From NCBI RefSeq assembly GCF_030013595.1, contig NZ_CP122768.1: DNA of 64,000 nucleotides; one strand, given 5' to 3'. This DNA comes from Escherichia coli. Its GTDB lineage: Bacteria; Pseudomonadota; Gammaproteobacteria; Enterobacterales; Enterobacteriaceae. The notes below the pieces were generated by a model. That model saw nothing but the letters and a program-made list of their open reading frames with translations. It searched no databases and was not told the DNA's origin. This document shows positions 1-21,603 of the stretch, one piece after another (within the stretch, counting starts at the first letter, position 1; each line of letters begins with the position of its first letter). The translations under genes and the position numbers were made by a program.

Positions 1-5435
<5,435 letters not shown>

Positions 5436-18556: not shown

Positions 18557-19195
18557 ATGCCCGGGCGCTTTGAACTAAAACCAACCCTGGAGAAAGTCTG
18601 GCACGCGCCGGACAATTTTCGCTTCATGGACCCGCTGCCGCCGATGCATCGTCGGGGGATCATTATTGCCGCCATTGTATTGGTAGTCGGATTTCTGCTT
18701 CCATCTGATGATACGCCCAACGCGCCGGTGGTGACGCGTGAAGCGCAGTTAGATATTCAGTCGCAATCACAACCACCGACAGAAGAACAGCTGCGGGCGC
18801 AATTAGTCACGCCACAAAATGATCCTGATCAGGTGGCTCCGGTCGCTCCAGAACCAATACAGGAAGGCCAGCCAGAAGAGCAGCCGCAACCCCCCCAAAC
18901 GCAACCATTCCAGCCAGATAGCGGAATTGATAATCAATGGCGCTCTTACCGTGTCGAACCCGGTAAAACGATGGCACAGCTGTTCCGCGACCACGGGCTG
19001 CCCGCTACCGATGTCTATGCAATGGCGCAGGTAGAAGGCGCGGGTAAGCCGCTGAGTAATTTGCAAAACGGGCAGATGGTGAAAATCCGCCAGAACGCCA
19101 GCGGCGTGGTGACGGGCTTAACCATTGATACGGGGAATAATCAACAGGTCCTGTTTACCCGCCAGCCGGATGGCAGTTTTATTCGTGCGCGGTAG
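18557..19195 (+). CDS. ytfB: OapA/LysM-domain cell-division-associated protein YtfB (212 aa from MPGRFELKP; alternative start at 18521)
   Basis: ORF 18521-19195; single TM segment, Pro/Gln-rich linker, C-terminal OapA-like domain. Confidence 0.85.
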
Positions 19196-19329
19196 ATGAA
19201 GGGTCAACCAGAAGCCAGCTAAGGAGCGTCTCTTTGATGACCTTACGTCTGGCTTCCAGTGCCTGGGGGGAAACCATACTGATGTGTTGACATCCTCCAC
19301 GCCCTGAAGGACGTGGATCCCTGCTACGT

Positions 19330-20538
19330 TCAGGCTGTCGCCTGAATCATTTCGGTGGGTTCCTGCTTCAACGAGCGGCCTGACTGCACCATCTCTCCAC
19401 AGGCAAGAACGGCGTGCCCCGCCGCTAAAATGTTACGAGCGCCATTTACATCGGCGTTCGCTGTATATCCACATACCTGGCATCTGAATTTAATTTGTGA
19501 CAGGCGATTTTCTTTCGCTGTATGACCACAGCACGCGCAACGCTGGCTTGTGTACGCTGGCGGAACAGCAAGCACCTGACCGCCACGCCAGAGCTGCTTG
19601 TACTCAAGCTGGCGGCGCATTTCATACCAGCCCTGATCCAGTATCGAACGGTTTAAACCTGATTTTGCCCGGACATTGCGCCGCGGCTGGCTGACCGTAC
19701 CCGCTGCTGACTTTGACATGTTGCTGACCTTCAAATCCTCAATGACTATCATTGCGTGGTTTTTGCTGACGGTCGTTGTGACTTTGTGAAGGTAGTCCCT
19801 GCGGATATTTGCGATACGGGAATGCAGTCGCTGTATTTTGCGTTTCTGCTTCTGCCAGTTATTGCTGAATTTGACCTTGCGGCTTAACTGTCGCTGAAGT
19901 CTCGCCAGCTTCTTCTGTTTTTTCTGAAAACTGTTTACAGGCTCAAAGACTGTGCCATCTGACAGCGTGGCGAGTTTAACCACGCCAGCATCCAGCCCGA
20001 CCATTGATGCTGAAGGATGAACCGGAGTTGATACTTCACTTTCTGTCTGAATACTGATGTACCACTTACCGCAGGACTGGCTGACCGTGACATTTTTCAC
20101 AACACCCGTGACCTGACGGCTATTCCGGTAGCGCATCCAGCCCAGTTTCGGCAGAAAAATACGGCTGTTTTCCTGATAGAGCTTAACGCCCTACGGGTAG
20201 CGGAATGCATCATTCTGTCCCCGCTTTTTGAATCGGGGAAAAGCAGCCCGCTTCTGGAAGAAGTTTTTGTAAGCCCGCTCAAGGTCTTTCAGTGACTGTT
20301 GCAATGGCTGTGACGGGGCATCTTTAAGCCATTGCGTTTCAGTGGCATTTTTCCACTCAACCAGCCAGGAAGCCATTTTCCCGTAAGGGATGTATTTATT
20401 ACCGGCCTCATGATTCTCATTCTGAAGCGCCAGAGCACGATTGAAAACGAAACGACATGCGCCTGCGAAGCGCCTCATTTCACGCTCCTGTTGACCACCG
20501 GGTCTTAACTGGAATTTAAATGCCTGTCGTCGTTTCAC
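19330..20538 (-). pseudogene. tnpB: tnpB (IS605 OrfB / TnpB RNA-guided nuclease family), ~402 codons interrupted by one in-frame TAG at 20191-20193
   Basis: N-terminal ORF (GTG start) VKRRQAFKFQLRPGGQQE...AFRYP, then TAG, then in the same frame GVKLYQENSRIFLPKLGW-MRYRNSRQVTGVV...; C-terminal part has RuvC-like region and CxxC...CxxC zinc finger ([39 protein letters not shown]). Confidence 0.8.
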
Positions 20539-20545
20539 AGGTCAA

Positions 20546-21000
20546 ATGATACTTTGGTCTGTGAAAAAAGAAACCTATATCCGGCGTGGAAGGTATTGTG
20601 TTTTCCTGATGCATGTTCACCTGGTCTTTGTCCCAAATACCGACGCCAGATTTTTGACCATGACGCGACAGAAAAACTACGCACTTACTTTTCAAATGTA
20701 TGTGCTGATTTTGAAGCTGAACTGGTTGAAATGGATGGCGAACCAGATCACGTCCATTTGTTAATTAAATATCCTCCCAAACTGGCGATATCCAGTCTGG
20801 TAAACAGCCTCAAAGGCGTATCGGGTAGGTTACTGCGACGAGATCGACCAGATATTGCAGTCAGGTATTACTACAAAGGCGTTTTGTGGAGTCCTGGCTA
20901 TTTTGCCAGTAGCTGTGGAGGTGCGCCAATATCCGCCATCCGTCAATCCATTGAACAACAGCAAACACCTGGTCAGGTGGAAAACCGCGCCGTATATCCC
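20546..21000 (+). pseudogene. tnpA: tnpA (IS200/IS605 Y1 HuH transposase), frameshifted; 3' limit uncertain
   Basis: Frame 1 MILWSVKKETYIRRGRYCVFLMHVHLVF, then a 1-nt frame change in a T-run (~20620-20630) into CPKYRRQIFDHDATEK...DHVHLLIKYPP (HuH motif)...[16 protein letters not shown]; a Ser occupies the position where family members have the catalytic Tyr. Confidence 0.7.
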
Positions 21001-21357
21001 CGCCCTGAAGGACGGGGTTTTACGGCACACCGGATAAACCAGGCCAAGCGTATGCTGGTTGATCAAATAATATCCCCCAAGCGCAGCAATATTAATATAC
21101 ACCTGCAATGGGTCGATATCTGGCTTAAAAATATTGTGTTTCTTCCCTTCATCCAATAAGGATTCCATTAACTGCAAGTGCGCATGATTAATTTCTAAGA
21201 GACGCTGTGATTTTACATAATGCACACCTTTACTTTGGTTTTCACTATGCACAATTTTTAAAAACCAAGGATTAGCAATATAATATATCCTAGGTAAAAT
21301 CGATGATTTTTTCAATGGCTTTTTGTGGCTGGTTAACCTGCTGATTAACAAACGCAC
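20830..21357 (-). CDS. Hypothetical ORF (175 codons) starting in the low-GC islet and reading into the IS element end; possibly a ytfA-like gene remnant
   Basis: ORF track 175 aa [17 protein letters not shown]...; roughly the first 108 codons lie outside the IS hairpin at ~21017, the rest is antisense to tnpA. No recognisable domain by eye. Confidence 0.3.
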
Positions 21358-21603
21358 CGATACCGACAGCGTAGAATAATTACATACCGCACAACAAGAA
21401 TGTATGGTGTAAGGCGTTGTCAGTCATCTCCCTCCCTGGGTGCATCTTTATATCCGTGATGAGCGATTTTTGATATTAATATCTTTTACTATCCGCTATT
21501 TTCACCACTTCAGAAAACAAACTTATTTTTATTAATATCGATTATTTATTCTGTGCACATTCAGCTGCGATATTTATAAAAAAATTAAACAGGCAAAAAT
21601 ACA

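Follow-up and report, generated by a model that had tools for sequence, protein, structure and literature searches.

The mechanism that we propose below is modelled on characterised TnpB systems, reportedly those of Karvelis 2021 and Altae-Tran 2021. Transcripts from the 3' end of tnpB, including those of E. coli K12, were reported in 2015 (PMC4615843). The homing mechanism of TnpB has been treated by Meers et al. (10.1101/2023.03.14.532601), and a 2026 study purified IS609 TnpB and assayed it with omega-RNA (PMC12781874). Two further groups of RNAs are of relevance here. RAGATH-18 forms the core of the reRNA that a cryo-EM structure shows in complex with IS607 TnpB, and it is stated to co-occur solely with IS607 TnpB and to be independent of the coding sequence (PMC11061315). 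As for the sotRNA/HgcC group, sot0042 has been mapped as a transcript lying at a tnpB 3' end, HgcC and sot0042 RNAs were both detected experimentally, and these RNAs carry an 8-bp stem with a UUCA loop, a right-end-like hairpin, as in the helix that we call S4 (PMC4615843).

We analysed a 64,000-nt stretch of the Escherichia coli contig NZ_CP122768.1 (hereafter, the window). The minus-strand segment from 19424 (or 19440) to about 19267 is very probably the omega-RNA (reRNA) gene of an IS609 element inserted in ytfA, and it is probably inert in this strain. The coordinates of the features are collected in the table.

The element is an IS609 copy, of the IS200/IS605 family, which lies on the minus strand in ytfA, a TetR/AcrR-family gene. 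The gene order around it on the E. coli chromosome is cycA-fklB-ytfB-(insertion)-yjfZ-rplI, and a single IS609 place was detected on the chromosome. It has a subterminal hairpin at each end and the remnant of a Y1 TnpA, and it was inserted just 3' of a short motif with no target duplication. The segment 19150-21150 is 100% identical to NZ_CM149870.1 (strain HCP5S3_I2, a pig isolate), where RefSeq annotates the TetR/AcrR (ytfA) gene in two halves, a minus-strand insQ as 'RNA-guided endonuclease InsQ/TnpB family protein' with the flag 'internal stop', and a plus-strand IS200/IS605 tnpA, partial and frameshifted.

Table. Coordinates of the IS609 element, its omega-RNA region and the Rfam matches in the window
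Feature	Position	Strand	Details
Omega-RNA scaffold, S1-S4 and conserved 3' tail	19287..19424	-	covariation; match to model R1 spans 19287-19440
Helix S1, CGGCG-GGGCA-CGCCG, 5 bp	19410..19424	-	within the codons for ...LAAGHAV...
Helix S2, RAGATH-18-like three-part stem	19362..19403	-	outer CCUGU/GCAGG, GGA bulge, middle GAG/CUC, inner GGU/GCC, GUUGAA strand
Helix S3, UUCAGGC-GACA-GCCUGAA, 7 bp	19329..19346	-	tnpB stop codon within its 3' strand
Helix S4, right-end subterminal hairpin UCCACGUCC-UUCA-GGGCGUGGA	19296..19317	-	9 bp including one G.U; UUCA tetraloop
Invariant 3' tail of the scaffold (...GGAUGUCAA)	19287..19295	-	ending common to homologues; similarity stops at 19287
Right end and cleavage site TCAA	19290-19287	-	last base of the element 19287
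Predicted guide CACAUCAGUAUGGUUUCCCC	19267..19286	-	first flank bases past the right end; length of 16-20 nt assumed
tnpB/insQ pseudogene	19330..20538	-	premature TAG 20193-20191; stop codon UGA 19332-19330
tnpA (Y1 transposase) remnant, divergent from tnpB	20546..20975 (end approximate)	+	frameshifted; catalytic Tyr codon altered, RQYIEQQ to RQSIEQQ
Left end	20999..21033	-	first base 21033; alignment to K-12 IS609, left-end search, partial match to model R1 at 20998-21017
Left-end hairpin CCCCGUCC-UUCA-GGGCGGGG	21018-20999	-	AAAA just 5' of the hairpin
Target motif (transposon-adjacent) 5'-TTTAT-3'	21034..21038	-	adjoins the left end; kept in the empty site
ytfB stop codon	19193-19195	+	ytfB 3' end convergent with minus-strand read-through
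RAGATH-18 (RF03064) match	19403-19360	-	29.5 bits, E 0.0074, full model 1-71; gathering 44.9
HgcC (RF00062) match	19397-19274	-	23.9 bits; gathering 50
sot0042 (RF02656) match	19457-19296	-	17.1 bits; gathering 88

The IS609 of K-12 (insQ, b1432; 1503161-1504908) has the same first and last base as the window copy and is 97-98% identical throughout (minus-strand alignment). Over the 154-nt omega-RNA region, the two differ at 2 positions, 19435 (5' of S1) and one inside S2, where the middle pair is A-U in the window versus an A.C mismatch in K-12. Both copies have the same hairpin layout at both ends, with one base of difference in the left-end stem, and tnpA is defective in both alike. tnpB carries a premature TAG in the window, whereas K-12 insQ is intact. 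Because the insertion sites differ (ytfA in the window, ydcL-ydcO in K-12), the guides differ as well (CACAUCAGUAUGG... versus UAUCGGUUUCUG...).

At the protein level, InsQ aligned over its full length with the TnpB of ISDra2 (8EXA; E 2e-54, residues 3-376) and with that of ISFba1 (8IAZ; E 1e-42). The reRNA of ISDra2 TnpB (Deinococcus radiodurans; 8EXA, 8H1J), like that of the window, extends over both the 3' end of tnpB and the right end, with a guide drawn from the flank. Both elements have a Y1 TnpA, and in both the left end is preceded by a T-rich target motif of 5 nt. The motif is TTTAT in the window and TTGAT in ISDra2.

To obtain homologues, a word-based protein search with InsQ gave just near-identical E. 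coli proteins, with no diversity for covariation, so we used a 50%-representative library. Seven diverse relatives were aligned, and one genome per species was then scanned. We found 80 loci with a TnpB at 57-85% amino acid identity and added five plasmid loci. The loci belonged to Enterobacterales, Pseudomonas, Burkholderiales, Aeromonas, Thiothrix, Desulfovibrio, Acidobacteria, and Verrucomicrobia. A divergent Y1 transposase gene lay ~10 nt or less from the tnpB start in 61 of 89 loci, and an IS607-type serine transposase in 0 of 89; therefore, this is a Y1-transposase (IS605-type) clade. To extract the 3' regions, we used the NAD motif in the last RuvC segment as an anchor.

Compensatory changes across 72-88 TnpB relatives maintain four helices between 19424 and 19296. 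We counted the pairs twice, in a structure-blind MAFFT alignment (72 sequences) and after realignment to a covariance model, R1 (88 sequences). RNAalifold on the MAFFT alignment returned S1 and S4 only; S2 and S3 were set by hand and then tested with controls and by the covariance-model realignment. Standard pairs filled 89.4% of the cells with MAFFT and 93.3% with R1, compared to 43-51% and 46-53% when the 3' partners were slid by 1-3 columns. Changes on both sides were observed in 25 of 34 pairs (MAFFT) and in 27 of 32 (R1). The covariation score was 0.365 and 0.399, respectively, versus 0.06-0.09 and at most 0.10 after sliding, and none of 500 shuffles reached the observed values in either count. 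Conserved structure with covariation, which the original prediction had named as a check on itself, is thus present in both alignments.

Considering the helices separately in the R1 realignment (88 sequences), S1 paired in 99.3% of cells and changed on both sides in four of its five pairs, one of which was found as GC in 37 sequences, CG in 35, and AU in 13. The middle and inner stems of S2 covary, and its outer stem shows U.G in 80 of 88 sequences. Both-side changes affected 7/7 pairs of S3 (88.9% of cells pairing) and 7/9 pairs of S4 (94.4%). Since G.U pairs are frequent, we placed the structure on the tnpB-sense strand. The window copy scored 158.7 bits against R1 with all pairs standard, its sequence being part of the R1 seed; elsewhere in the 64 kb, R1 matched the left-end hairpin alone. 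Folding, the other computational check put forward in the original prediction, agreed: the predicted fold of the 204 nt of 19470-19267 was more stable than those of 200 shuffled sequences (z = -3.24), of which one did as well.

Upstream of S1, no covariation-supported helix was found. The pairs predicted there vary almost solely by G-C/G-U wobble, and we claim no helix for this reason. There is a possible hairpin at 19456-19440. Pseudoknots between the conserved loops (the S2 loop GCAGUCAG, the junction GAACCCACCGAA, and the tail) were looked for by eye; no loop-loop pairing covaries, so none is claimed.

At its 3' side, the scaffold ends with the transposon. GTCAA closes 76 of the 77 unique aligned homologues, and GCCAA the remaining one. 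Nearly all homologues share ...GGAGGATGTCAA with no similarity beyond it, and GGAGGAUGUCAA is the invariant ending of the scaffold in the relatives, just before the guide. Because the homologue block ends at 19287 and similarity stops there, the right end is placed independently at this base. Other E. coli IS609 copies matched the junction query only from 19287 inward. The RNA is thus encoded in the sense orientation of tnpB, across the 3' end of the ORF and the right end, and its scaffold stops at the transposon boundary, followed by a non-conserved, flank-derived guide.

The original prediction had put a tnpB stop at 19330 and the right-end hairpin at 19296-19317, about 13 nt away. Both positions hold: the ORF list gives UGA at 19332-19330, and the gap between the stop codon and S4 measures 12 nt (19329-19318). 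The interval proposed for the RNA, 19230-19335, was misplaced, as the scaffold occupies 19424-19287 and the guide 19286 to about 19267. Of the 57 nt of flank in that interval, no more than ~20 can be guide, 19230-19266 being plain ytfA flank, while about 90 nt of scaffold (19336-19424) inside the tnpB frame fall outside it.

We searched Rfam 15 in permissive mode over 18800-21400. The three best-supported matches (E 0.007-0.16) all mapped to the 3' end of tnpB on the minus strand, and all three families are tnpB-linked RNAs. Six weaker matches (E 0.9-7.6) belonged to unrelated families at scattered positions and look like chance. The covariance-model search that had been suggested at the outset hit TnpB-linked families at the right place and strand, with every score below gathering, so we do not claim membership in RAGATH-18, HgcC, or sot0042. 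At the same place in homologues, HgcC matched in eight (25-33 bits) and RAGATH-18 in two (29.2 and 33.4 bits), also below gathering. Like the window RNA, the sotRNA/HgcC RNAs (RF02656, RF00062) start about 1100 nt into tnpB and end tens of nt past its stop, and they share with it a terminal stem of 8-9 bp with a UUCA tetraloop. These families are archaeal, and the scores of the window and its homologues were 17-33 bits versus gathering scores of 50 and 88.

The conserved pairings could also be structures of the right-end single-stranded DNA for TnpA only (hairpin, 5' guide tetranucleotide, and TCAA), with no functional RNA. S4 is also the DNA hairpin that the TnpA transposase recognises, and S4 with GGAU (consensus GAAU) on its 5' side and the terminal TCAA resembles the right-end layout of the IS608 type. 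Besides, the left end carries a near-identical hairpin, and its tetranucleotide and motif change together (AAAA with TTAT; AAAG with TTAC in two homologues). Since S4 and GGAU/TCAA would also serve TnpA, the covariation of S4 does not separate RNA from DNA. However, S1, S2, and S3 show equally strong covariation in coding sequence, as far as 137 nt inward from the end, and TnpA has no known DNA-structure requirement in the S1-S3 region, 12-130 nt inside the hairpin. These three helices do separate the two, because they are well inside the element, coding, and without a known transposase need. Moreover, S2 matches the consensus of RAGATH-18, an RNA seen with a TnpB by cryo-EM, and HgcC and sot0042 are experimentally detected RNAs. 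A role in DNA only is very improbable.

Alternatively, the hairpins could be ordinary 3'-end elements of the tnpB mRNA, such as an intrinsic terminator or a stabiliser, with no guide role. A GC-rich stem-loop 12 nt past the stop codon would suit this explanation, but S4 is not followed by a U-tract and the terminator scan reported nothing at it. Conservation stops exactly at the transposon boundary, past an invariant 12-nt tail, and the multi-helix layout and the likeness to RAGATH-18 and HgcC are not terminator features. We consider this explanation hardly credible, and we read the four helices as the scaffold of an omega-RNA.

Since scaffold similarity stops at 19287, the guide is placed from 19286 to about 19267. 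The first flank bases, CACATCAGTATGGTTTCCCC (19286-19267), are the predicted guide of an omega-RNA from this copy; a guide length of 16-20 nt and the 5' end of the RNA were assumed from other characterised TnpB systems. The guide segment is identical, but for one base, to the sequence right 3' of TTTAT in the empty ytfA allele. A natural allele that reads CATATC is mismatched at guide position 3. Empty alleles read TTTAT followed by CAYATCAGTATGG (also written as TTTAT followed by CATATCAGTATGG...), and the LAU-OXA empty site reads, on the minus strand, ...GGCCTGGTTTAT followed by CATATCAGTATGGTTTCCCCCC... As the empty allele is contiguous after TTTAT, the insertion was precise, without duplication, and immediately 3' of the motif. 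Ten independent sites or elements (the window, K-12, and eight others) have the same TTTAT just before their left end.

The insertion in ytfA is polymorphic in E. coli, with about 1,740 genomes occupied and about 3,280 empty. A joined-flank query, representing the empty site, had at least 80% of its length in one place in 3,283 of 5,426 genomes, and the junction of the right end with ytfA was found in 1,743 genomes. The target of such a guide would consist of the motif of the left-end flank plus the guide-matching sequence. In the window, the guide match follows GTCAA instead of TTTAT, and the occupied site is therefore not a target.

For an intact element, we propose that transcription through tnpB would yield an RNA whose 3' part folds into S1, the RAGATH-18-like S2, S3, and S4. 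S3 would span the stop codon, and S4 would be followed by the invariant tail and then by 16-20 nt copied from the flank as guide. TnpB would bind the scaffold, and the flank-derived guide would direct a cut at the 'donor joint', TTTAT+CACATCAGTATGG..., which would be present only after excision of the element (scarless, by TnpA) or on a sister or incoming allele that is empty. Because the donor joint exists only when the element is excised or on an empty allele, repair of the cut by homologous recombination would restore the element. The occupied site would be protected by the GTCAA that precedes its guide match. By analogy with the characterised systems, we infer transcription, processing, TnpB binding, and cleavage for the RNA of the window copy.

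The window copy itself lacks an intact cognate TnpB in cis. The original prediction had taken tnpB to be inactivated, and this is the case: compared to K-12 insQ, where the codon is CAG, a CAG to TAG change at 20193-20191 cuts TnpB off at codon 116, in line with the 'internal stop' of RefSeq. The gene is split into two minus-strand ORFs, 20191..20538 and 19330..20136 (the latter end includes the stop codon). Intact tnpB genes are found at the same ytfA locus in other strains (e.g. WP_061128813.1); CP52E is one strain whose ytfA copy of IS609 has an intact insQ. A simple scan for sigma-70-like promoters on the minus strand found none in 19000-20800, with no enrichment over shuffles, and polarity caused by the premature stop could lower transcription of the 3' region. 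The omega-RNA gene is intact here. With a premature stop in tnpB and a tnpA that is broken as well, its RNA would have no TnpB partner to process or protect it and is most likely an inert relic.

An orphan omega-RNA that is still transcribed might nevertheless act without its own TnpB, either loaded in trans by another IS609-clade TnpB (e.g. from a plasmid) or as read-through antisense to the convergent ytfB 3' end. The scaffold is undamaged, with every pair standard at 158.7 bits, and enterobacterial plasmids commonly carry tnpB genes of the IS609 clade. Elements made of a guide RNA only and acted on in trans have been discussed in the literature (10.1101/2023.03.14.532601), and a sotRNA was reported in a truncated tnpB pseudogene of Halobacterium (PMC4615843). 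Against this, the chromosome has a single IS609 place with no cognate TnpB evident, the minus-strand promoter scan was negative over 19000-20800, and a cell whose sole ytfA copy is occupied offers no target to a guide directed at the empty allele. Activity of this kind is unlikely, and an inert relic remains our reading of the window copy.

Regarding its novelty, this is a real omega-RNA gene that was already known, not a new one: IS609 is catalogued, RefSeq names insQ an RNA-guided endonuclease, and the K12 transcripts and the work on IS609 TnpB with omega-RNA are published. The observation behind the original prediction is confirmed, and its interpretation is partly supported. The central idea, an omega-RNA module of IS200/IS605 lying across the 3' end of tnpB and the right end, with a flank-derived guide, was borne out by the covariation, the boundary, and the TnpB-linked Rfam matches. 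The suggestion that the dead tnpB might still leave a structured RNA gained no support: no sigma-70-like promoter turned up on the minus strand in 19000-20800, and such an RNA would lack a TnpB. The finding has little importance beyond correct annotation, as a further copy of a catalogued insertion sequence with a published architecture. Its by-products are the exact right end of IS609 (19287), the target motif TTTAT, the guide register, and a four-helix, covariation-backed model of the omega-RNA of the IS609 clade, for which no Rfam family attains its gathering score. Strains with an intact insQ at ytfA offer a natural system for TnpB-driven retention or homing of a chromosomal element.

Finally, the RNA resembles the reRNA of IS607 TnpB (ISFba1; RF03064; 8IAZ). 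S2 aligns with the whole RAGATH-18 model, and nearly all conserved nucleotides match (CCUGUGGAG...CGUUGAAGCAGGAA). The core features are present, namely a 5-bp closing stem, the GGA bulge, a 3-bp stem, and the GAUGAA strand, and the stems are kept in 88 homologues. The RAGATH-18 score of the window is low (29.5 vs 44.9) because its inner hairpin is 17 nt long, not about 44. In ISFba1, the order is the same as in the window: a 5' stem, the RAGATH-18 core, two 3' stem-loops, and the guide. The elements differ in their transposase (Y1 in the window, serine recombinase in ISFba1/IS607) and in their target motif (TTTAT versus AGGAG). In addition, ~95 nt of the window RNA are shared with coding sequence, and the motif sits within the tnpB ORF of a Y1 clade, while the reRNA of IS607 loci is described as fully non-coding and separate from the coding sequence.

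Judging from this sequence likeness, the balance tips slightly towards real homology between S2 and RAGATH-18. With similarly guarded confidence, a little above even, we suggest that a RAGATH-18-type core is also the central omega-RNA module of a large, mainly proteobacterial Y1 clade that includes IS609. The core would lie inside the last ~100 nt of the tnpB frame, where the same bases would encode the TnpB C-terminus and three covarying helices, and TnpB together with its guide RNA would have been exchanged as one module between the two transposase types. A RAGATH-18-like core inside the tnpB ORF of a Y1 clade is the one mildly unexpected point of this locus.

Complete E. coli genomes are polymorphic for the insertion of IS609 in ytfA. 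A query spanning the right-end/ytfA junction was found in 1,743 of 5,426 complete genomes, and a query with the two flanks joined recovered a contiguous empty site in 3,283/5,426. Some of the occupied strains, such as CP52E, carry an intact insQ at this site. For tnpA, the remnant in the window presents a frameshift and an altered catalytic Tyr codon (RQYIEQQ in K-12, RQSIEQQ here), and the K-12 copy (yncK) presents an internal stop instead. The loss of tnpA was independent in the two copies.

At position 3 of the predicted guide, the window reads C (CACATC) and strain LAU-OXA, in its empty ytfA allele, reads T (CATATC), so that this position of the window copy, near the target motif, is a mismatch against that allele. 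The host gene (TetR/AcrR) may already have been a pseudogene, independently of IS609, since ytfA is annotated as partial ("missing N-terminus") in the empty-site genome too.

At the left end, the AAAA tetranucleotide 5′ of the hairpin occurs together with a flanking (T)TTAT in most of the elements compared with the window. Two homologous loci, L019 and L049, present AAAG at this position together with a TTAC flank. This joint change of the left-end tetranucleotide and the target motif fits the DNA-guide rule described for IS608.

At the structural level, many homologues contain additional hairpins of 20–45 nt, located within the loop of S4 (the right-end hairpin) or in or beside the stem of helix S2. 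The four core helices remain in register in the alignment of homologous tnpB 3′ regions (A3). A further possible hairpin, CGCCGAU-GUA-AAUGGCG, lies upstream of helix S1. It is conserved, and covariation is uninformative for or against it because its sole variation is G-C/G-U wobble at synonymous positions.

Locations of the features (window coordinates unless a locus or alignment is named)
Feature	Location	Strand	Examples
Polymorphic IS609 insertion in ytfA	19287-21033	-	
tnpA remnant	20546-20975	+	
K-12 tnpA copy (yncK)	L003:5219-5650		
Left-end region compared	21019-21038		
AAAG with TTAC flank	L019, ~1784; L049, ~1500		
Inserted hairpins	A3 columns 44-135 and 220-258		L028, L035, L056, L065, L034, L059
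Possible hairpin upstream of S1	19440-19456	-	
Guide position 3	19284		
LAU-OXA empty ytfA allele	L089:760-840		
Partial ytfA, empty-site genome	L089:693-1094		
Serine recombinase ORF, Providencia plasmid	L005:2216-2937	opposite to element	
Second omega-RNA model match, betaproteobacterial MAG	L027:4502-4672		

In the Providencia plasmid locus, a serine ORF annotated as "recombinase family protein" enters the right end of the element from the opposite strand, and its final codons are the translated right-end hairpin. Apparently, the IS was inserted in a gene of the resolvase or invertase type, at its 3′ end. The ORF is not an IS607 TnpA. An E. coli plasmid match (H112) likewise presents a serine "recombinase family protein" ORF entering the right end.

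Finally, the omega-RNA covariance model matches the betaproteobacterial MAG a second time (49.6 bits), at a degraded sequence located downstream of the first element at a distance of about 1.2 kb. This second match is probably a decayed tandem copy because no long tnpB ORF precedes it.
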